64,000 nt of DNA from Acidobacteriota bacterium (GTDB lineage: Bacteria > Acidobacteriota > Vicinamibacteria > Fen-336), in contig QHVJ01000150.1 of assembly GCA_003222275.1 (NCBI GenBank), forward strand, positions 10,518-74,517. The letters run 5' to 3'. A program made the position numbers and the translations under genes. Position 1 is the first letter of the stretch. The number at the start of each line of letters is the position of its first letter. Of this stretch, positions 11,303 to 61,594 are shown in pieces. Under the pieces are notes generated by a model. It was given only the letters and a program-made list of their open reading frames with translations. It had not been told where the DNA came from and did no database searches.

Positions 11303-11785
11303 ATGAGCAACTCGGAGGAAACGAAGAAACGGGCTGCGCGCGGAGGCGAATTCATTTCGCCGGAGCGCGCGGGGGGTCAGGGGGGGTGCGACGCAGCACC
11401 CCCCCTGCTCAGTGACGAACAGCGGGTTGCCTTCGACCGGGGGGTGGCCGAGTTCAACACCGGGTACTACTTCGAGTGCCACGATACGCTGGAGGACATG
11501 TGGACCGGAATCCGCGGCCCGTCCCGGGACTTCTTCCAGGGGCTCATCCAGGTCTCGGTCGCGTTCTACCACCTCAATGGAGGCAACCTGCCGGGGGCGG
11601 AGAGCATGCTCCGGCGCGCGCTCAAGCGCTTCGCGCGCTACCCGGACCGCTACTTCGGCTTCGACCTCGCCGCCCACCGCGAAGAGCTGCAAGCGTGGCT
11701 CGACCGGATCGTGTCGGCGCGCGTGGAGGGCCTCACCGTCGCCGACCTGCCCAAGTGGAGCTTCGGTCCTCCGGAGCCCGGATGA
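11303..11785 (+). CDS. DUF309 domain protein
   Basis: FNTGYYFECHDTLEDMWTG...GLIQVSVAFYHL motif block. The N-terminal 35 codons contain the 45-bp G-run repeat element, so the true start may be the internal GTG near 11444. Confidence 0.55.
   Translation: MSNSEETKKRAARGGEFISPERAGGQGGCDAAPPLLSDEQRVAFDRGVAEFNTGYYFECHDTLEDMWTGIRGPSRDFFQGLIQVSVAFYHLNGGNLPGAESMLRRALKRFARYPDRYFGFDLAAHREELQAWLDRIVSARVEGLTVADLPKWSFGPPEPG
11365..11410. repeat. G-run hairpin element GCGGGGGGTCNGGGGGGGTGCG-N-AGCACCCCCC (copy inside the 5' region of the DUF309 ORF)
   Basis: About 90% identical over 45 bp to 54441..54486 (intergenic). A more diverged relative lies at 51452..51484. Confidence 0.45.
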
Positions 11786-52942: not shown

Positions 52943-53371
52943 ATGGTCGACGTGTCCGCCAAGCCGGTCACGAGCCGCGAGGCGGTGGCGCGGTGCCGCA
53001 TCCGCATCGCTCCCGCCGCCCTGCGCCTGGCGCTCAGCGGGCGGCTCCCGAAAGGGGGCGTGGCCGAGGTGGCCCGCCTGGCCGGGATCCTGGCCGCCAA
53101 GCGCACGGCCGAAGCCATCCCCCTCTGTCACCCGTTGCCCCTCACCCTCGTCGACGTCGACGTGCGGCCCCGCCGGGACGGCTTCGAGATCGAGGCCCGC
53201 GTCCGCACGGAGGCCCGCACGGGCGCGGAGATGGAGGCGCTCCACGCGGTGGCCGTGGCCGCCCTCACCGTCTACGACATGGTCAAGGCCGCGGACAAGA
53301 CGATGACCATCACCGACATCAGGCTGGTGAAGAAAACCGGAGGCAAGAGTGGGGCTTACATCCGGCGATAG
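52943..53371 (+). CDS. moaC: Cyclic pyranopterin monophosphate synthase MoaC
   Basis: MVDVSAK...[15 protein letters not shown]...GAEMEAL...DMVKA. The in-frame upstream codons encode [11 protein letters not shown], matching the conserved MoaC N-terminus, but contain no ATG/GTG/TTG. The listed start is therefore a minimum. Confidence 0.8.
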
Positions 53372-54389
53372 GCGCGCGGGAAGGACGTGGCCGACGCTGC
53401 TCGGAGTCGTCGCCGCCGCGGCCGCGCTCGCGACAGGACGGGCGGACGCGCAACCCGCGAACGCCGCGCCCAATCCCTACCGCACGGTGGAGGGCTGGGC
53501 GAAGATGCCCGAGGGGCGGACGTGGGGCGCGACGAGCGCGGTCGACGTCGCCCGCGACGGCCGGTCCATCTGGGTCGCGGAGAGATGCGGCGCCAACACC
53601 TGTGCCGGCTCGACCCTGCCCGCGGTCCTGCTGTTCGACGAGTCGGGCCGGCTCCAGAAGAGCTTCGCCGCGGGGGTCTTCGTCTTTCCCCACGGCATCC
53701 ACGTCGATCGGGGCGGGAACGTCTGGGTGACCGACGCGCGGGGCCGCGACGGGAAGGGGCACCAGGTCTTCAAGTTCAGCGCGGACGGGAAGCTGCTGCT
53801 GACGCTGGGCAAGGCGGGCGTCACCGGCGAGGGTCCCGACGTCTTCAATCAGCCCTCCGACGTGGCGGTCGCCGCCAACGGCGACGTCTTCGTGGCCGAC
53901 GGCCACGACGAGAACTCCAACGCGCGCATCGTGAAGTTCACCAAGGACGGCAGGTTCATCAAGACATGGGGCAAGCGGGGGACGGCCGCGGGCGAGTTCG
54001 ACACGCCGCACGCGCTGGCCTTCGATTCACGCGGGCGGCTCTTCGTGGCCGACCGCGGCAACAACCGCATCCAGATCTTCGACCAGGAGGGTAAGTTCCT
54101 CGAAGAGTGGAAGCAGTTCAGCCGGCCGAGCGGGATCTACATCGACAAGCACGACGTGATCTACGTGGCCGACTCCGAGTCCAACCGCAAGACCAACCCG
54201 GGCGGGAAGCGAGGCATCCGCGTGGGCAGCGCGAAGGACGGCAAGGTCACGGCGTTCATCCCCGACCCGGAGCCGGACCCGGAGAAGGTGGTCACGAGCG
54301 GGTCGGAGGGCGTCGCGGCCGACGCCCAGGGCAACGTCTACGGCGCGGAGGTCGGCCCGCGTGCCCTCAAGAGATACGTGAAGAAGTAG
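53349..54389 (+). CDS. Secreted NHL-repeat (six-bladed beta-propeller) protein
   Basis: GTG start with RBS GGAGG; signal peptide. Repeated NHL-like blades ([40 protein letters not shown]). Confidence 0.7.
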
Positions 54390-54454
54390 GCGTTCCCAAA
54401 TTGCAAGGCTGCGAGCGAAGCGCGATTCACTCGCGCGCAGCGAGCGGGGGGTCT

Positions 54455-54479
54455 GGGGGGGTGCGCCGCTAGCACCCCC
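54455..54479. terminator. GC-rich hairpin (GGGGGGTGC-7nt-GCACCCCCC) between convergent NHL genes; part of the G-run repeat family
   Basis: 9-bp perfect stem with a 7-nt loop in a 94-bp convergent intergenic region. No obvious U-tract, so possibly a bidirectional factor-independent or Rho-assisted terminator. Confidence 0.35.
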
Positions 54480-54483
54480 CAGC

Positions 54484-55683
54484 TCACTTGACGCCCCAGG
54501 GCGTCCCCTGGTCCGGCTTCACCGGCCCGAGACCCTTGTAGACGAACTTCTGCAGGCGCTTCCCTTCGTAGGTCTCGGTGGTGTAGATGTTCCCCTTCGA
54601 ATCGGTGGCGATGCTGTGAACGCCGAAGAACTGGCCCGGCTGGCGCCCGCCGTCGCCGAACGCCGTGAGGATCTTCAGCGTGTCGCGGTCGAGGATGTAG
54701 ACCTTCTCGTTCTTGCCGTCGGCGAGGTAGAGGTACTTCTGCCGGGGATCCTTCGAGAAGGCGATGTCCCAGACCGAGCCGTCGCCCAGCGTCTTCTTCG
54801 CGATGAACGTCTCCTTCACGAAGCTCCCGTCCTTCTGGAACACCTGGATGCGGTCGTTCGGGCGGTCGCAGACGTACAGGAGGCCGTCGTTCGCCAGCTC
54901 CGCGCAGTGGACCGGCGTGCGGAACTGCTGAGCGGGCAGGGCCGCGGGGTCGTAGTTCCCCAGGTCCGTGTCGTCGGGCTTGTGGCCGTAGGCGCCCCAG
55001 TAGCGCTTGAACTTCCCGGTGTCGGCGTCGATCACCACCACCCGCTTGTTGCCGTAGCCGTCGGCGATGTACGCCTCGTTGGCCTTCGGATCGACGAAGA
55101 TCTTCGCGACCTGGCCGAAGTTCTCCATGTCGTTGCTGCCCTTGCCCTGGCCCTGGTGCCCGAACTGCATCAGGAACTTCCCGTCGCGCGTGAACTTCAC
55201 GACGTGGGCATCGCCCTTGGCGTTGCCGCCGATCCAGACGTTGCCCTTGTCGTCGGCGGTGATGCCGTGGTTCGAGGCGGGCCATTCGTAGCCCGGCCCG
55301 GGGCCGCCCCAGTGCCCGACCAGGTTCCCGGCCGGATCGAACTCCAGGATGGGCGGCGCGGGCAGGCAGCAGTCCTCCGCGCTCGGCGGGGTCGAGGCGA
55401 GGCCGATCTCCGTCCGCGCGTTGAGCGTGCCCGCGCCTCGATGGACGATGAACACGTGGTCACGCGCGTCCACCGAGACGCCCACGGCGGAGCCCAGGAC
55501 CCAGTGGTTCGGCAGGGGCTTCGGCCACAGCGGGTCCACTTCGAACCGCGGCGCCTGGACCGCGCCCGCCGCTTGCGCGGCCGCCTTCGCCGCGAGCGCC
55601 GCCTGGCCGGCGCCGAGGGCGGCGAGCACGGCGAGGAACGACGCTCCCACGAGGACGTTGTGCGTCTGCCTCGATCGTGCCAT
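54484..55683 (-). CDS. Secreted NHL-repeat beta-propeller protein (second, convergent)
   Basis: Signal peptide; NHL blades (VFIVHRG, VWIGGNAKGD, AYIADGYGN, LYVCDRPNDRIQVF, LYLADGKNEKVYILD, IYTTETYEG). Confidence 0.7.
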   Translation of the reverse strand: MARSRQTHNVLVGASFLAVLAALGAGQAALAAKAAAQAAGAVQAPRFEVDPLWPKPLPNHWVLGSAVGVSVDARDHVFIVHRGAGTLNARTEIGLASTPPSAEDCCLPAPPILEFDPAGNLVGHWGGPGPGYEWPASNHGITADDKGNVWIGGNAKGDAHVVKFTRDGKFLMQFGHQGQGKGSNDMENFGQVAKIFVDPKANEAYIADGYGNKRVVVIDADTGKFKRYWGAYGHKPDDTDLGNYDPAALPAQQFRTPVHCAELANDGLLYVCDRPNDRIQVFQKDGSFVKETFIAKKTLGDGSVWDIAFSKDPRQKYLYLADGKNEKVYILDRDTLKILTAFGDGGRQPGQFFGVHSIATDSKGNIYTTETYEGKRLQKFVYKGLGPVKPDQGTPWGVK

Positions 55684-55736
55684 GGTCTCTTTCCTCGAAG
55701 GGCGGCAGTATACACTCGCGCCGTATCGCGCAACCC

Positions 55737-57059
55737 ATGAGAACGCGTCTGCTTCTCGCGCTGCCGGCCGCGCTGGCCTTCGGGCTCGCGCCGCCGGCGT
55801 CCCCCCACGACATCGCGCCGGACGTGGCCGTGCAGGCGTTCCTCAAGCCGGAGGGCCAGCGCCTGCGCCTGCTTGTCCGCACGCCGCTCGCCGCCCTGCG
55901 GGACGTGGTCTACCCGACGCGCGGGCCGGTGTACCTGGACATCGCGCGAGCCGATCCGTCGCTGCGGGACGCCGCCAACCTCTGGATCGCCGGCGCGGTC
56001 GAGCTCTACGAGGAGGACGAGCGCCTGCCCTCCCCGCGCATCGTCACCGTGCGCGTGTCGCTGCCCTCCGACCGCAGCTTCGGAAGCTACGAGGAGGCGC
56101 TGGAGCACGTCACGGGCCCGCCCCTGCCCGACGACACCGAGATCTACTGGAGCCAGGCGATGCTCGACGTGCTGTTCGAGTATCCGATCCGTTCCGAGGG
56201 CTCCCGCTTCTCGATCCATCCCGCGCTCGGCCGTCTCGGCCTGCGCGTGGTCACCGCGCTCCGGTTCCTGCCCCCCGGCGGCGCGGTGCGCGCGTTCGAG
56301 CTCGAGGGCGATCCGGGCCTCGTCCGTCTCGATCCGCGCTGGCACCAGGCCGCGCTCCGGTTCGTCGGGCTGGGCTTCCGGCACATCCTCGACGGCACCG
56401 ACCATCTCCTCTTCCTGCTGTGCCTGGTGATCCCGTTCCGGCGGCTGCGCGCGCTCGTGCTCGTCGTCACCTCGTTCACCGCCGCGCACTCGATCACGCT
56501 GATCGCGTCGGCGTTCGGTCTCGCGCCGGACGCGCTCTGGTTCCCGCCCCTCGTCGAGACCCTGATCGCGGCCTCCATCGTCTACATGGCGCTCGAGAAC
56601 ATCGTCGCCCCCCAGCTGCGCCGCCGATGGATCATCACGTTCGCATTCGGCCTCGTCCACGGGTTCGGCTTCTCGTTCGCCCTCCGGCAGACGCTGCAGT
56701 TCGCCGGATCGCACCTGCTGACGTCGCTGCTGTCCTTCAACGTCGGGGTCGAGCTCGGGCAGCTCCTGGTCCTGCTGGTGCTGGTTCCGGCCCTCGATCT
56801 CCTCTTCCGCCGCGCAGTGCCCGAGCGGACGGGGACCATCGTGCTGTCCGCTCTCGTGGCCCACACGGCCTGGCACTGGATGATCGAGCGCTGGGACCGG
56901 CTCCGGCAGTTCCGCTTCCCGTGGCCGGCGCTGGACGCCGCGCTGCTGGCGAGCACGATGCGCGGGCTGATGGTGGTGGTCGTAGCGGCAGGGCTCGTCT
57001 GGCTGGTGCGCAGCGTGGTGCGGCCCGCCCGGCGGCGCGTCGCCAAGGAGGTCGAATGA
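55737..57059 (+). CDS. HupE/UreJ-family membrane protein (putative Ni/Co transporter) with N-terminal periplasmic domain
   Basis: Start MRTRLLLALPAALAFGLA (signal peptide). HupE/UreJ_2 signature HILDGTDHLLFLLCLV and second half FGLVHGFGFSF. Confidence 0.7.
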   Translation: MRTRLLLALPAALAFGLAPPASPHDIAPDVAVQAFLKPEGQRLRLLVRTPLAALRDVVYPTRGPVYLDIARADPSLRDAANLWIAGAVELYEEDERLPSPRIVTVRVSLPSDRSFGSYEEALEHVTGPPLPDDTEIYWSQAMLDVLFEYPIRSEGSRFSIHPALGRLGLRVVTALRFLPPGGAVRAFELEGDPGLVRLDPRWHQAALRFVGLGFRHILDGTDHLLFLLCLVIPFRRLRALVLVVTSFTAAHSITLIASAFGLAPDALWFPPLVETLIAASIVYMALENIVAPQLRRRWIITFAFGLVHGFGFSFALRQTLQFAGSHLLTSLLSFNVGVELGQLLVLLVLVPALDLLFRRAVPERTGTIVLSALVAHTAWHWMIERWDRLRQFRFPWPALDAALLASTMRGLMVVVVAAGLVWLVRSVVRPARRRVAKEVE

Positions 57060-58438
57060 CGGATCCGACGCGGCGGTCTTTCCTGCAGGCCATGGCGGGC
57101 GTAGGCTTCTGGGCCATGACCGACAAGCCGAGACCGGCGGGGGCCCAGGCCGCACCGGCATGGGATCCGTCGCAGCCGCTGCCCGCGGACCTCCCCGTGC
57201 CCGTCGACGACGGCGCATGCAAGCATCTGCCGGGCCTGGCGGTGCCCGCGATCAAGCTCCGGTCCACCAAGGATCGCTGGGTGGACCTCGCGGCGGTTCG
57301 TGCCCCGCGCGTCGTCGTGTACTGCTATCCGCGAACGGGGGTCCCGGGCCAGCCCCTGCTTCCCGGGTGGGACGCGATCCCGGGCGCGCGCGGCTGCACG
57401 CCGGAGACCTGCGGCTTCCGCGACCATCACAAGGACCTGCAGCAGCTCGGAGCCGAGGTGTTCGGCTTCAGCACGCAGACGACCGAGTACCAGAAGGAGA
57501 TGGCCGAGCGGCTCCACCTGCCGTTCGAGGTGCTGAGCGACGCCGACCTCGCCTTCGTGCACGCGCTCCGGCTGCCGACGTTCGACATCGAGGGCATGAC
57601 CCTCGTGAAGCGGCTCACGCTCGTGCTGTCACGGCAGCACATCGAGAAGGTCTTCTACCCGGTGTTTCCGCCCGACAAGCATGCAGCCGAGGTGATCGAG
57701 TGGCTGCGCGCGCATCCGGCCGAGGCGAAGGGCGCGGAGAAGGTCATCGCCCTGGTCGCGTTCCCGGACCTCACGCTGCTCGATCTCGTCGGGCCCCTGC
57801 AGGTCCTGAAGGCGCTGCCGGCGCCCTATCGGACCGTGGTCGTGGGGGAGCGCAAGGAGCCGATGTCGACCGACACCGGCCTCACGCTCACGCCCGAGCG
57901 GACCTTCGCCGAGGTGCCGCAGCCGTTCGCGATCGTCGTGCCCGGCGGGCCGGGATCGGTGGCGGCGATGGCCAATCCCGCGCTGCAGTCGTATCTGCGC
58001 TCGGCCGCGCCGAGCGCCGACGTCGTCGGCTCCGTGTGCACGGGCGCGCTCGTCCTGGGCGCCGCGGGGCTGCTCGAGGGCCGCCGGGCGACCACGCACT
58101 GGGCCTACTCCGGCGAGCTGGAGAAGCTCGGCGCGCGCTACGTGCGGGAGCGGTGGGTGGAGGACGGCAAGCTCGTGACGGCGGGCGGGGTCTCGGCGGG
58201 CATCGACATGGCCCTCGCCCTCGCCGCCCGCCTCAGCGATCCCGCCACCGCGCAGCGCATCCAGCTCGGGATCGAGTACGATCCGCACCCGCCGCTCGGC
58301 CCCATCGACTGGAGCCACGTGGGCGACGCGGAGCGCGAGCGGCAGCGCCAGGGCGGCACGGGCCGGCGGCTGAAGGACGCGCGCCAACTTCTCGTCGGCC
58401 GGCCCGACCTGCTCCGCCGCCTGGGGATCGAACCCTGA
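57056..58438 (+). CDS. Tat-exported fusion protein: BCP/PrxQ-like peroxiredoxin domain + DJ-1/PfpI (class I glutamine amidotransferase-like) domain
   Basis: ATGA overlap with the HupE gene. Twin-arginine motif TRRSFLQA. Prx motif GCTPETCGFRD. DJ-1/PfpI nucleophile elbow VCTGALVLGAAGLL with HWAYS. Confidence 0.7.
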   Translation: MTDPTRRSFLQAMAGVGFWAMTDKPRPAGAQAAPAWDPSQPLPADLPVPVDDGACKHLPGLAVPAIKLRSTKDRWVDLAAVRAPRVVVYCYPRTGVPGQPLLPGWDAIPGARGCTPETCGFRDHHKDLQQLGAEVFGFSTQTTEYQKEMAERLHLPFEVLSDADLAFVHALRLPTFDIEGMTLVKRLTLVLSRQHIEKVFYPVFPPDKHAAEVIEWLRAHPAEAKGAEKVIALVAFPDLTLLDLVGPLQVLKALPAPYRTVVVGERKEPMSTDTGLTLTPERTFAEVPQPFAIVVPGGPGSVAAMANPALQSYLRSAAPSADVVGSVCTGALVLGAAGLLEGRRATTHWAYSGELEKLGARYVRERWVEDGKLVTAGGVSAGIDMALALAARLSDPATAQRIQLGIEYDPHPPLGPIDWSHVGDAERERQRQGGTGRRLKDARQLLVGRPDLLRRLGIEP

Positions 58439-58456
58439 TTTGATTCCTGTGTTAAT

Positions 58457-58486
58457 GTGATACTGTGAAGAATGTCACAGTATCAC
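58457..58486 (+). promoter_or_regulatory. 12-6-12 perfect inverted repeat GTGATACTGTGA-agaatg-TCACAGTATCAC spanning the vapB start codon (likely VapB/VapBC autoregulatory operator)
   Basis: Perfect dyad in an AT-richer patch; the GTG start of vapB lies inside the left arm. Confidence 0.45.
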
Positions 58487-58707
58487 TACCGGAGCTGGTC
58501 TACCGCCGCGCCCGCATCAAGGCCGCCGAGCGCGACACGTCGGTAACTGCCCTCGTCCGCGAGTTCCTGATGAAGCTGGGGGAGGAGGAGTCGGACTTCG
58601 AGCGGCGCCAGCGGCTTCAGGACGAAGTGCTCGCCTCGGTGCGAGGCTTCAGCGCCGGCGATCGCCGGCCGCGGAGCGACGTGCACGGGCGCCGTGCGCT
58701 TCGTTGA
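58465..58707 (+). CDS. vapB: Type II antitoxin (VapB-like, ribbon-helix-helix/AbrB-like N-terminus)
   Basis: 80 aa; N-terminal DNA-binding-like region MKNVTVSLPELVYRRARIKAAE...ALVREFL. Overlaps the downstream PIN toxin by 14 nt. Confidence 0.6.
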   Translation: MKNVTVSLPELVYRRARIKAAERDTSVTALVREFLMKLGEEESDFERRQRLQDEVLASVRGFSAGDRRPRSDVHGRRALR

Positions 58708-59125
58708 CACGAACGTCCTGCTCTACGCGGTCAGCACGGCCGCCGGCGAGCGCGCCAAGGCGGATCTGGCCCGGGCGGTGTTGGAGTCCTCCGACCTCGG
58801 CCTGTCCGTCCAGGTCTTGCAGGAGTTCTATGTCCAGGCGACGCGCCCGACCAAACCTGACCGGCTCAGTCATGAGCAGGCCGCCATGCTCGTCGAGAGC
58901 TTCTTGAGGTATCCGGCGCAGGAGATCACGGCGGCCCTGATGCGCGCCGCCCTGGAAACGACGCGCCGTTTTCGTATCGCGTACTGGGACGCCGCCATCG
59001 TAGAAGCAGCCCGGGCGCTCGGTTGCCGGACGCTCCTTTCGGAAGACCTGGCGCACGGCACCGATTACGAAGGCGTCACCGTCGAGAACCCGTTCCGCAC
59101 GGGCCGGACGCGGCGCCGGACCTGA
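58694..59125 (+). CDS. vapC: PIN-domain ribonuclease toxin VapC
   Basis: MRFVDTNVLLYA N-terminus with conserved Asp residues; 143 aa; GTG start. Confidence 0.8.
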   Translation: MRFVDTNVLLYAVSTAAGERAKADLARAVLESSDLGLSVQVLQEFYVQATRPTKPDRLSHEQAAMLVESFLRYPAQEITAALMRAALETTRRFRIAYWDAAIVEAARALGCRTLLSEDLAHGTDYEGVTVENPFRTGRTRRRT

Positions 59126-59219: not shown

Positions 59220-60368
59220 TCAGGCCGCTCTCGCGGTGACCCCGAGGATCCGGCCGAACACGTCCGTGGCGCGCTTCATCTCGTCGAGCGTGCCGATCGA
59301 GACCCGCACGTGGCTCTTCTCCAGAGGCGGGAAGTCCCGCGCCACGAGCACGCCCTGCTCGCGGCAGGTGTCGCGGAAGGCCTTCGCCGGGCGCTTGATG
59401 TCGACGAACACGAAGTTGGTCTGCGAGTCCGTGGACGCGAAGCCCGCCTTGGAGAACCAGTCGATCGTGAACCGCCGGGCCTCGGTGTTGCGCGCGCTCT
59501 CGCGCTGGAGCCGGGCCTGGTCCTGGATGGACGCGGTGGCGGCGACGATGCCGGCCACGTTCAGGGCCATCGACCCCTCCCAGTCGAGCCGCTTGATCGT
59601 CTCGGGGTGCCCGATCGCGTAGCCGACGCGCATGCCCGCCATCCCGTGCGCCTTGGAGAACGTGCGCGCCACCACCACCCGCGGGTCCTTGACCGCGCGC
59701 GCCGCCTGCGTGCGGTGGGACGGATCGGTGACGTAGTCGTGGTACGCCTCGTCGATCAGGACGAGGGCGTCGGGCGCCGCGGAGTGCACGCGCTCGATGA
59801 ACGCGTCCACCGCGTCGCCGGTGAGGAGGGTGGCGGTGGGGTTGTTGGGGTTGTTGAGGAACACCAGGCCCGCGCCCTTCGCGGCCTCGGCCATCGCGTC
59901 CAGGTCGAGCTTGAGCGAGCGGTCGAGCGGGATCGCGCGCACCGGCGTGCCGATGAGGTCGGCGTAGCCCGCGCACTCCTCGTAGGTGAGCTGGCCCGCG
60001 ACCAGCGGCTTCGCGGGCGAGGTGAACGTCTGCACCGCCACCCGCAGCACCTGGGTCGAGCCGCAGCCGCTCGTCACGTTCTCGGGGCTCACGCCGAACT
60101 TCTCGGCGATGGCCTGGTGGAGATGCGCCACGTGCTCGAAGGGATAGCGGCCGGCCGGACCGCCTTCGGCGAGGGCGCGGCGCACGGAGTCGAGGACGGC
60201 CTCGCCCGGGCCCAGCGGGTTCTCGTTGTTGTGGAGGAGCAGCGGCCGGGGCGGGCGCGCCGCCCCCGACCCCTGGAAGAGCCCGGCCCAGGCCTCGCGG
60301 CGGGCCGCGAGCAGGCTGGCTCCGCCGATGCCCACCGTCTTCACGAACGCGCGGCGCGTGAACGACAT
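59220..60368 (-). CDS. Class I/II PLP-dependent aminotransferase (HisC-like) with N-terminal Tat signal peptide
   Basis: Start MSFTRRAFVKTVGIGGASLLAA after RBS AGGAGG. LNNPNNPT...SKAHGMAGMRVGY (PLP lysine) block. The 59220..62738 ORF is a read-through artefact merging this gene with antisense sequence. Confidence 0.8.
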   Translation of the reverse strand: MSFTRRAFVKTVGIGGASLLAARREAWAGLFQGSGAARPPRPLLLHNNENPLGPGEAVLDSVRRALAEGGPAGRYPFEHVAHLHQAIAEKFGVSPENVTSGCGSTQVLRVAVQTFTSPAKPLVAGQLTYEECAGYADLIGTPVRAIPLDRSLKLDLDAMAEAAKGAGLVFLNNPNNPTATLLTGDAVDAFIERVHSAAPDALVLIDEAYHDYVTDPSHRTQAARAVKDPRVVVARTFSKAHGMAGMRVGYAIGHPETIKRLDWEGSMALNVAGIVAATASIQDQARLQRESARNTEARRFTIDWFSKAGFASTDSQTNFVFVDIKRPAKAFRDTCREQGVLVARDFPPLEKSHVRVSIGTLDEMKRATDVFGRILGVTARAA

Positions 60369-60397: not shown

Positions 60398-61594
60398 TCA
60401 CCGGGGCCTCCGGGGTTCGTTCACCGACCCGGCCGGGGCCGGCCGGCCCCCGCCGAGCACCTCGGCGATGACCACCCCCGCCCGCTGCATCTCGTCGATC
60501 GTGCCGATGGAGACGCGCGCGTGGGTCTTCTGGAGCGGCGGGAACTCGCGTCCGACCAGGATGCCGCGCCGCGCGCAGTCTTCCTTGAACGCCTTGGCGG
60601 GGCGGCCGATGTCGACGAACACGAAGTTGGCCTGCGAGTCCATGACCCGGAAGCCCATGTCCTTGAAGATGCGCGTCGTGAACGCCCGCGCCTCGGTGTT
60701 GCGCGCGCGCTCGGCCTCGATGTGGGCGGGATCGTCCAGCGCCGCGATCGCCGCGGCGACGGCGAGCGAGTTCTGGTTGAACGTGATCCCCCAGCGGTTG
60801 AAGGCGTCCATCGTGTGCTTCTGGCCGATCGCGTAGCCCACGCGCATCCCGGCCATGCCATAGGCCTTGGAGAGCGTGCGCGCGACGATGACGTTCGGGT
60901 GCTCGAGGGCGAGCGGCACCGCGGTGGCGTAGCCGGGATCCGTCACGTAGTCGTGATAGGCCTCGTCGACGAGGATGGCGGTCTCCGGCGATTCCTGGCC
61001 GACGCGCGCGATGAAGTCCGCCACCGCGCGGGCCGGGTGGAGCGTGCTCGTGGGGTTGTTCGGGTTGCACAGGAACACCAGCCCCGCCCAGCGGGCCGCC
61101 TGCGCCATCGCGTCGAGGTCGAGCCGGCCGTCCTTGTCGACCGGGACCCGCCGCACGCCGATGCCGAGCTGGTCGGCCATCTTCTCGGGCATCTCGAAGG
61201 TCGGCGCCGCCGTGACCAGCGGCCGCGACGACGACGTGTAGAGACGCACCGCGATGCGCAGCAGCTCCCAGGAGCCCGAGCCCATCGACACGTTCTCCGG
61301 CTTCACGGAGTTGCGGCGGGCGATCGCCTCGCGTAGGTCGCCCATCGAGGGCCGCGCGTTGGTGGGGTAGCGTCCCGCGTCGACGAAGGCGCGCGTCAGC
61401 GCCTCCATCGCCGCCCGGCCCGGGCCGAGCGGGTTCTCGTTGCTGTCGAGCAGGATCTTGGCTTCGGAGCGCGGGGTCGGCGCGGCGCCTCCGGCCGTGA
61501 ACGCCTCGCGGCCGCGGGCGGCGACGATGGCCGGGGAGTAGGCTGCGGTCCCGGGCGAGATGGCGCCCAGGAACGAGCGTCGGGAGACCGGCAT
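60398..61594 (-). CDS. Class I/II PLP-dependent aminotransferase (HisC-like) with N-terminal Tat signal peptide, paralog
   Basis: Start MPVSRRSFLGA after RBS GAGGAGG. LCNPNNPT...SKAYGMAGMRVGY. About 55-60% identical to the downstream paralog. Confidence 0.8.
   Translation of the reverse strand: MPVSRRSFLGAISPGTAAYSPAIVAARGREAFTAGGAAPTPRSEAKILLDSNENPLGPGRAAMEALTRAFVDAGRYPTNARPSMGDLREAIARRNSVKPENVSMGSGSWELLRIAVRLYTSSSRPLVTAAPTFEMPEKMADQLGIGVRRVPVDKDGRLDLDAMAQAARWAGLVFLCNPNNPTSTLHPARAVADFIARVGQESPETAILVDEAYHDYVTDPGYATAVPLALEHPNVIVARTLSKAYGMAGMRVGYAIGQKHTMDAFNRWGITFNQNSLAVAAAIAALDDPAHIEAERARNTEARAFTTRIFKDMGFRVMDSQANFVFVDIGRPAKAFKEDCARRGILVGREFPPLQKTHARVSIGTIDEMQRAGVVIAEVLGGGRPAPAGSVNEPRRPR

Follow-up and report, generated by a model that had tools for sequence, protein, structure and literature searches.

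A predicted exported isocyanide hydratase domain, fused to a peroxiredoxin-like domain, in a gene cluster with an anglerase-type permease from Acidobacteriota

We analysed a window of 64,000 nucleotides, the whole stretch taken from contig QHVJ01000150.1 of a soil Acidobacteriota bacterium (Vicinamibacteria; Fen-336), and in it a cluster of four genes. These encode two NHL-repeat propellers, a permease of the HupE/UreJ type, and a protein in which a peroxiredoxin-like (Prx-like) domain is fused to a domain of the isocyanide hydratase (ICH) type. The four open reading frames (ORFs) are present in the sequence at the coordinates given by an initial annotation of this DNA, and their GC content at third codon positions (0.93-0.95) is as expected for real genes in a window of 71% GC. 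The features of the cluster are as follows.

53349-54389, plus strand: NHL1, 346 amino acids, predicted exported six-bladed NHL propeller, PAL-like paralogue
54390-54483, no strand assigned: spacer between the convergent NHL genes, with an ~85-bp double-hairpin repeated element
54484-55683, minus strand: NHL2, 399 amino acids, predicted exported PAL-like NHL propeller, divergent from the permease gene
55705-55715, plus strand: conserved GCAGTATACAC motif, ~25 nt 5' of the permease start codon
55737-57059, plus strand: HupE/UreJ-2 permease, 440 amino acids, anglerase-type
57045-57059, plus strand: Shine-Dalgarno sequence AAGGAGG (57045-57051), 4-nt spacer and ATGA overlap, read from the sequence
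57056-58438, plus strand: whole Prx::ICH fusion gene (ORF and Pfam)
57056-57151, plus strand: twin-arginine signal peptide, fusion residues 1-32, read from the sequence
57161-57715, plus strand: peroxiredoxin-like domain of BCP/PrxQ fold, residues ~36-220 (Pfam, family alignment and fold match)
57740-58438, plus strand: ICH-type domain of the DJ-1 superfamily, residues 229-460 (PDB sequence match and Foldseek)

Pfam searches found NHL repeats in NHL1 (E 5e-28) and NHL2 (E 7e-13). In the fusion protein they found Redoxin and AhpC-TSA (E 2e-12 and 5e-13, residues 60-211) followed by DJ-1_PfpI (PF01965, E 4e-29, residues 231-390). The permease matched HupE_UreJ_2 (PF13795, E 1.2e-43, profile positions 1-153 of 156) over its C-terminal half only, which bears out the earlier description as a membrane protein of the HupE/UreJ family that carries an extra periplasmic domain. 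Judged from 31 homologues, this protein starts at ATG 55737 and not at GTG 55677; it is 100% identical to an NCBI-deposited protein, and the nearest named relatives are metagenome-assembled genomes of Vicinamibacteria. The claimed stop/start overlap of the permease and fusion genes was found as an ATGA at 57056-59, preceded by AAGGAGG, and this junction is kept in four related contigs (L001, L003 and L009 among them). A scan for promoters and terminators gave no sigma-70 promoter and a single weak terminator-like site, at the stop codon of the fusion gene, and Rfam gave zero matches across the window.

By its closest relatives, the C-terminal half of the fusion protein is a domain of the ICH clade. 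Its best matches among PDB sequences are the Pseudomonas fluorescens ICH entries (3NON and mutants, E 4.6e-48), with 47.3% identity to Pseudomonas ICH over 203 amino acids, and the best Foldseek matches were likewise ICH. Human DJ-1 and PfpI matched at E 1e-6 or worse (human DJ-1 at ~5e-6), and the NCBIfam models for PfpI and DJ-1 scored 52 bits against a cut-off of 139 and 44 bits against a cut-off of 131, respectively. In the alignment, Asp243 (57782-57784) corresponds to ICH Asp17, the general acid/base, which is substituted in entries 3NOV and 9MXP (D17E and D17N). Cys328 (58037-58039) and Thr329 correspond to Cys101 and Thr102, the segment SVCTGALV being aligned with SVCTGSLV (VCTGALVLG comprises fusion residues 327-335). 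This Cys-Thr pair is invariant in 17 of 17 exported ICH homologues, and a published study describes what Cys101, the nucleophile, and Asp17 do in catalysis (PMC12570138). Further on, in the segment of the mobile helix, TAGGVSAGID is aligned with TGGGITAGID, such that Gly377 is equivalent to Gly150 and Val379 replaces Ile152. The initial annotation had read this half as DJ-1/PfpI with a glyoxalase, deglycase or chaperone activity. Its placement in the DJ-1 superfamily stands, and the functional type does not. The Cys/His/Glu triad on which that reading had been staked is absent because the domain belongs to the ICH clade: the alignment reveals no Cys-His(-Glu/Asp) triad of DJ-1/PfpI proper, with Thr following the Cys and Asp in place of Glu18. 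ICH activity is plausible for this domain, because a more distant protein, Rv0052 of Mycobacterium tuberculosis (reported E 5e-31 to InhA), still hydrates the isonitriles of kupyaphores, an activity proposed to free their metal (PMC8872721).

The fusion protein begins with the twin-arginine motif that had been noted before, T5-R-R-S-F-L-Q. It continues with 15 uncharged residues, S8-T22 (h-region AMAGVGFWAM; mean Kyte-Doolittle hydropathy 1.2 over residues 10-21), and with A30-Q-A32 followed by Ala. The motif is conserved among homologues: every fusion cluster has it, as do 80 of 119 clusters of close single-domain Prx homologues, and the protein is predicted to be a substrate of the twin-arginine translocation (Tat) pathway. 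Every form of Prx and ICH in the arrangements described below carries apparent export signals, either Tat on the Prx-like protein or Sec on a separate ICH. Signal peptides were absent from ~70 more distant ICH homologues (40-60% identity), and an exported ICH appears specific to this Vicinamibacteria lineage; no description of a periplasmic ICH was found in the literature searched. The window domain resembles ICH/InhA (3NON), Rv0052 and SfaF of Streptomyces thioluteus in its DJ-1-superfamily fold, its catalytic positions and the proposed link to isonitrile metallophores. However, those proteins have no signal peptide, whereas the ICH domain described here is predicted to be exported, lies behind a Prx-like domain and ends in a lineage-specific tail.

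That tail (RQRQGGTGRRLxDAxxLLxxRPDLLxRLG; 58340-58435 in the window) is strongly conserved in the exported ICH clade and is unlike the visible C-terminal residues of Pseudomonas ICH. Additionally, tandem double-ICH proteins of ~450 amino acids are common in Geodermatophilaceae (P0018, P0027 and P0389-P0392, from Geodermatophilaceae and metagenomes); in P0018 the first copy has no nucleophilic Cys (GATGNGA) and the second has SVCTGS.

A linker of ~8 residues, PAEAKGAE, connects the ICH domain to the Prx-like domain that precedes it. An AlphaFold2 model of the whole fusion, built on a 34-sequence alignment, had predicted local distance difference test (pLDDT) values of 30-60 in the ICH half, too low for judging the interface between the domains. 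The Prx half itself was modelled with pLDDT 80-93 and matched BcpB (5EPF), E. coli BCP, Dot5 and PrxQ in Foldseek with TM scores of 0.75-0.82 (entries 5EPF, 9A4D_B, 2A4V and 5ENU). When the family profile was compared with the PDB, GCTPETCGFRD (fusion residues 113-123) aligned with TPGCTKEACHFRD of BcpB. In this alignment Cys114 takes the place of the peroxidatic Cys and Cys119 that of the resolving Cys of BCP type (C114-TPET-C119), Cys119 being invariant and Cys114 kept in at least 90% of family sequences. Arg186 is also invariant, within KRLTLV, which aligns with KRTTFV of BcpB. The former assignment as a BCP-like peroxiredoxin thus holds for the BCP/PrxQ fold, the CxxxxC motif and the Arg. 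It fails for the Pro and Thr of the otherwise universal PxxxTxxC, which are replaced throughout the family by Ala107 (-7) and Ala111 (-3). The family also has an insertion of 16-18 residues between the conserved YPRTG and GC, and the Prx half scored 51 bits with the NCBIfam BCP model, the cut-off of which is 140.

E. coli BCP, BcpB 5EPF and Caulobacter PprX share with the window domain the Prx fold, CxxxxC and the Arg, as well as envelope export in the case of PprX. They differ from it in that the window domain has Ala for Pro and Thr, carries the insertion, bears a Tat rather than a Sec signal, is fused, and has no reductant gene nearby. A Sco-like copper chaperone was considered as another identity for the Prx half and set aside, its fold and Cys spacing matching BCP and not Sco.

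The family to which this domain belongs is present in at least 593 species of many phyla, in both Tat-exported and cytoplasmic forms. The neighbours of its members in 79 genomes reflected housekeeping synteny (SmpB, DapA, UDG) only, with no functional partner. Two pairs of near-invariant residues without counterpart in BCP, Cys55/His57 (DDGACxHL, 57218-57226) and His124/His125 (FRDHH, 57425-57430), may form a metal or ligand site. Among the fusions that we sampled (P0402, P0404, P0411, P0418, P0434, P0458, P0472, P0502 and P0531), the domain is joined to GNAT acetyltransferases (5 of 10 sampled), to a TPMT/TehB-type methyltransferase and to NUDIX; in STAND NTPase and SARP-BTAD regulators it is the C-terminal domain. 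These partners suggest a sensor or accessory role.

The Prx half might accordingly not be a peroxidase at all but an accessory thiol-redox or sensor module that maintains or signals the redox state of the catalytic Cys of its partner, or one that binds a ligand or metal, the fusion then being a regulated or self-repairing hydratase and not a bifunctional antioxidant. We regard this as possible, if on the unlikely side. It would fit the Ala substitutions, the insertion in the active-site loop, the additional Cys and His residues and the range of fusion partners. It would also fit the AhpC encoded in the same window, which has the canonical PMDFTFVC, unlike the Prx half, and the precedent of periplasmic PrxL, which lacks the conserved residues and had no detectable peroxidase activity; periplasmic PprX, with all four conserved residues, is active (PMC3322552). 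The existence of PprX as a true periplasmic peroxiredoxin of BCP type counts against this alternative, however, as do the close match to the BCP fold and the presence of a Cys at the peroxidatic position, of a second Cys five residues on (the spacing of E. coli BCP and BcpB) and of the Arg.

The partner of the fusion gene, the permease, begins with a signal peptide (residues 1-23), and His24 (codon 55806-55808) is the predicted mature N-terminus. This His is invariant in 31 of 31 homologues, where sites of A-x-A type (ASP in the window) precede it and cleavage is predicted. A periplasmic beta-sandwich domain (residues ~24-200) is followed by the PF13795 transmembrane domain, from 56361-56807 onward, with conserved HxxxGxDH, AHS, VHGFGF and AHTxWHW motifs. 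When the ~180 N-terminal residues were modelled with AlphaFold2 (pLDDT 73-92), fold comparison placed them nearest to the copper-bound Ang-1 domain (PDB 9GCE), and then to the zinc-binding proteins ZrgA and PA4063. Structural alignments with Ang-1 gave 15-17% identity. The likeness was found by fold comparison alone, and a profile of the 31 homologues, searched against PDB sequences, gave no match to 9GCE at E<=10.

The term anglerase denotes a mono-histidine-brace domain, with His1, that is joined to a PF13795 permease (Franco Cairo et al. 2025; PMC12537917). According to the same study, Ang-1 occurs for the most part in Pseudomonadota, and Ang-2 is confined to Actinomycetota. The study reported dissociation constants of 74 nM (Cu) and 220 nM (Ni) for Ang-1 and 62 nM (Cu) for Ang-2, and proposed that a metal ion is captured by the domain and passed on to the channel. 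The permease of the window resembles the Ang-1 and Ang-2 permeases in its PF13795 channel, in a His directly after the signal peptide and in an Ang-fold beta-sandwich, but the genes next to those permeases are unlike the NHL/PAL-like, Prx and ICH neighbours found here. On the modelled fold, we file it as an anglerase-type HupE/UreJ-2 permease from Acidobacteriota, of a remote or third type because the defining architecture is present but a sequence-level match to 9GCE is not. The initial annotation's classical Ni/Co HupE has to be given up in favour of the PF13795 family, in which Ang-1 and Ang-2 bind copper and Ang-1 also nickel. Literature searches for PF13795 or HupE_UreJ_2 by name yielded nothing useful.

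Upstream of the permease gene, the sequence GGCAGTATAC(A/G)C, ~25 nt from the ATG, is constant in an otherwise divergent intergenic region. It is kept in the window, L001, L003, L004/5, L009, L013 and L094, and it occurs once in the window. This motif (GCAGTATAC) is a candidate -10 element or operator, or regulator site, for the permease-fusion operon.

We recovered ten types of arrangement from related contigs, which differ in what lies 3' of the permease gene.

Window, L001 and L003: the Prx::ICH fusion
L004/5: a Sec-exported ICH, then a Tat-exported Prx
L009: a Tat-Prx, then a fumarylacetoacetate (FAA) hydrolase::ICH fusion
L013: a Tat-signal class-V pyridoxal phosphate (PLP) enzyme, then a Tat-Prx
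L094: a pyrroloquinoline quinone (PQQ) dehydrogenase and cytochrome c, then FAA hydrolase and ICH ~4 kb off
L178: PQQ dehydrogenase and cytochrome c, with the start of an FAA hydrolase ~6 kb off at the end of the L178 sequence analysed and no ICH visible
L175, L177 and the contig of P0354: neither Prx nor ICH
L093: MsrB and YceI; no NHL genes

The divergent NHL2/permease pair is found in 9 of the 10 types, and the left flanks differ (MoaC, LEA_2, TPR, Ala racemase, GDH, M16 peptidase, TetR). The stable core of the locus is thus the NHL2/permease pair, and the permease-fusion pairing is derived and belongs to one narrow lineage. The pairing that had been singled out as unusual is indeed a rare architecture, but the conserved unit is the NHL2/permease pair instead. 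Fusion proteins were found in ~10 clusters of 82-91% identity from independent metagenomes. Nine of these clusters share one junction (WLRxHP, 6-8 residues, KVIAL) and for that reason the fusion, as far as sequence can tell, is of single origin, arising most simply from a gene order like that of L009. Among the best 150 matches from 1.84 billion representative proteins, no other protein matched both halves.

It might be argued that adjacency and fusion are meaningless, neighbouring but unrelated exported stress proteins having been joined once by a deletion in a recent ancestor. The single event, its narrow distribution (none of those 150 matches covers both halves) and the variable genes 3' of the permease are what such an accident would leave. 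We nevertheless think it very improbable, since the frame, the Tat motif, the short linker and both catalytic sets are kept at 82-91% identity across independent metagenomes. The modules, moreover, remain adjacent despite an order swap and a different fusion, and the Shine-Dalgarno/ATGA coupling is conserved.

Several other associations of these modules were seen in the same set of contigs. The FAA-hydrolase::ICH fusion carries a Sec signal and occurs in P0055/L009 (6001-7830), P0075, P0116 and P0118; in L094 (10956-12890) FAA hydrolase and ICH are adjacent separate genes, giving a second Rosetta-stone link for ICH. An exported ICH of 84% identity lies directly 3' of a TonB-dependent receptor of the CarboxypepD_reg type in L010 (2390-6786), L011 and L012. 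It is followed there by three proteins without significant Pfam match, the third with a sub-threshold Lactamase_B_2. In L093 (6419-8935) the permease is flanked by MsrB (SelR), with an N-terminal extension and a 7-bp gap, and by YceI, a further case in which the permease stands beside a protein for redox repair in the envelope.

The two convergent NHL proteins had been described as exported propellers, and this description holds: Pfam finds the repeats in both, and NHL1 has a hydrophobic, signal-like N-terminus. Each also aligns along most of its sequence with the PAL domain of peptidylglycine amidating monooxygenase (NHL1 against PAL 3FVZ: E 5e-26 over residues 93-258). Compared with each other from end to end, the two are 27% identical, and their motifs line up. 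In the residue alignment to 3FVZ, NHL2 retains R533 (HRG), H585 (NHG), Y654 (DGY), H690 (PVH) and R706 (CDR). NHL1 retains R533 (AER), H585 (PHG, H115), H690 (H221) and R706 (R236), with His186 replacing Tyr654. The third zinc ligand of PAL, H786, falls outside the HMMER alignment, the candidate equivalents being a His in NHL2 (VHS) and a Glu in NHL1 (SEG). Because most of the aligned active-site and zinc residues of PAL are retained, NHL1 and NHL2 are likely to be metal-dependent lyase-like enzymes and not binding propellers. PAL 3FVZ is likewise a six-bladed NHL propeller, with which NHL2 shares five aligned residues and NHL1 four of the five, but the window proteins are bacterial, apparently exported, stand-alone and without a PHM partner, at an identity of ~25-30%. 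NHL2 is identical to PYQ06080.1 (DMF83_13500) from an Acidobacteria metagenome-assembled genome. An assignment to the ScyF/scytonemin proteins was set aside, as the NCBIfam scores were far below the cut-offs, and literature searches on bacterial PAL yielded nothing useful.

Between the two NHL genes, a G-run hairpin had been taken for a terminator. The hairpin is real: an inverted-repeat search found a perfect 9-bp stem at 54456-54480, and the spacer folds with -50.9 kcal/mol (z -1.9). It is not a dedicated terminator, however, but part of a repeated intergenic element. A second copy of the ~85-bp element, which holds two hairpins including GGGGGGTGC/GCACCCCCC, lies at ~11330-11410 (65 of 101 aligned columns identical), and sister contigs lack the element between their NHL genes, the spacer there measuring 6-34 bp. 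It looks like a repeat of the REP/MITE type.

On the other side of the cluster, overlapping genes for a vapB-like antitoxin and a PIN-domain vapC (58465-59125) lie between the fusion gene and a pair of aminotransferase genes. This insertion has an AT-rich left junction (58436-58470) and is found only in this genome, L001, L003 and L009 being without it. The two aminotransferases, of class I/II (HisC-like), are encoded on the minus strand at 59220-60368 and 60398-61594 and start with MSFTRRAFVKTVG and MPVSRRSFLGAISPG. Both open with signals of the twin-arginine type, which marks them as PLP enzymes with apparent export. Five related contigs keep the pair beside the ICH gene.

These neighbours raise an alternative without any isonitrile or copper logic, namely that the locus is a periplasmic catabolic or salvage island in which the ICH-like domain has a different electrophilic intermediate as its substrate. 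The pathway would be made up of the PAL-like lyases together with FAA hydrolase, both exported aminotransferases, Amidohydro_2 and PQQ dehydrogenase, and the permease would supply or salvage their metal. In keeping with this, the ICH gene stands beside the Tat-signal Aminotran_1_2 pair in the window, L001, L003, L009 and L094 (in L004 the Prx gene and two more intervene). It adjoins FAA hydrolase in L094 and is fused to it in L009, P0075, P0116 and P0118, and in L013 the Tat-signal class-V PLP enzyme takes its place. Furthermore, Amidohydro_2, an amino-acid permease and PQQ dehydrogenase/cytochrome c recur nearby, and both NHL proteins retain the aligned lyase residues. Nevertheless, no known pathway joins these enzyme families, and the neighbours are encoded here on the opposite strand with the vapBC pair between them and the fusion gene. 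The catalytic set of the ICH domain is intact, moreover, and its 47% identity to a characterised ICH exceeds that of the active Rv0052. We therefore consider a catabolic island doubtful.

The reading that we prefer, to which we would give a probability of only about 35%, is that the cluster counters, in the periplasm, isonitriles that sequester copper, and couples this to the capture of copper. Among natural products, isonitriles serve as chalkophores and as antimicrobials, and ICH is seen as protection from them (PMC10792529); one such compound, SF2768, kills through copper sequestration (PMC13500777). Isonitrile antibiotics or chalkophores released by rival soil microbes would sequester copper and cause oxidative stress. 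The exported ICH domain would then hydrate these isonitriles (R-NC) to N-formamides in the periplasm by means of Cys328 and Asp243, and copper that is freed or scarce would be caught by the His-brace domain of the permease and imported by its channel. The Prx-like domain, through Cys114 and Cys119, might remove peroxide or keep Cys328 of the hydratase reduced in an oxidising, copper-exposed periplasm. The sequences establish the identities of the domains, their catalytic residues, the export signals, the geometry of the operon and a linkage that outlasts rearrangement within the lineage; in this scheme we infer the enzyme activities, the metal and the hand-off between hydratase and permease.

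A link between copper stress and periplasmic thiol redox is known from Scs (suppressor of copper sensitivity; PMC10907172) and from PprX. Like the cluster described here, Scs and ScsB-TlpA-PprX deploy periplasmic thiol-redox proteins alongside copper handling; however, their components are non-homologous to those of the window, where no membrane electron transporter is encoded at the locus, and the regulatory context is another.

Two findings from the related contigs support an isonitrile countermeasure. The linkage of Prx and ICH survives rearrangement, as a fusion, in swapped order (L004/5) and as Prx next to the FAA-hydrolase::ICH protein (L009), and the 84%-identical exported ICH stands in the context of a TonB receptor. 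The conserved ICH residues, the invariant His and Ang-like fold of the permease, the kept Shine-Dalgarno/ATGA coupling and the export signals point the same way. Other observations weigh on the other side. In the 64-kb window there is neither an isonitrile synthase nor a TonB receptor nor any other copper gene, and the ICH gene is at least as consistently found beside FAA hydrolase and the two Tat-signal aminotransferases, which hints at another pathway. About half of the arrangement types (L094, L178, L175, L177, L093 and P0354) lack Prx or ICH directly 3' of the permease, and in L179 a Prx 89% identical to that of the window stands alone. The linkage is limited to closely related genomes (at least 66% identity), and shared ancestry could explain much of it. 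Outside the lineage, the permease or NHL genes were found in 0 of 79 Prx loci and any ICH-like gene in 2 of 79, and ~79 more distant ICH loci contained no homologue of the permease, Prx, NHL or FAA hydrolase. A metagenome scan with the ICH alignment returned mostly distant cytoplasmic ICH and one close locus, the distant loci being without cluster genes. To these must be added the missing Thr and Pro of the Prx half and the fusion of its family to many partners unrelated to one another, and the lack of a sequence match between the permease and 9GCE.

The same components could be arranged into a scheme of copper piracy, in which soil Vicinamibacteria would take copper from the isonitrile chalkophores of other microbes. 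Here the exported ICH would destroy the ligand of a copper-isonitrile complex in the periplasm, an acidobacterial mono-histidine-brace anglerase of a third type would catch the copper, HupE/UreJ-2 would import it, and the Prx-like domain would shield the hydratase Cys from oxidation by copper or peroxide. We hold this to be quite improbable; if true, no earlier case of a release step that destroys the ligand would be known from periplasmic copper uptake in a Gram-negative bacterium. A self-produced isonitrile was considered and set aside, since no synthase-like gene lies within the 64-kb window, the part of the genome covered here.

The superfamily of every component was already known, as was, since 2025, the anglerase type of permease. 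What is new is the apparent export of an ICH, the single event that fused it to a BCP-like domain of non-canonical type, and its place in an operon with an acidobacterial permease of the anglerase type next to PAL-like propellers. Even without a functional link among them, the re-annotation is useful: the C-terminal half of the fusion groups with ICH and not DJ-1, the permease with anglerases and not the Ni/Co HupE, and the propellers are PAL-like and not generic NHL proteins. The Prx-like domain also draws attention to a widespread family whose active site departs from the canonical one and which has been joined repeatedly to enzymes that modify small molecules and to regulators.

ICHs are known as cytoplasmic enzymes, and their natural role is debated between defence and the release of metal from isonitrile metallophores. 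An exported ICH and a metal-capturing permease in one operon would offer a concrete setting for the idea of metal release or of an anti-chelator. The locus would also extend the anglerase permeases to the Acidobacteriota, an abundant and poorly understood phylum of soil bacteria.

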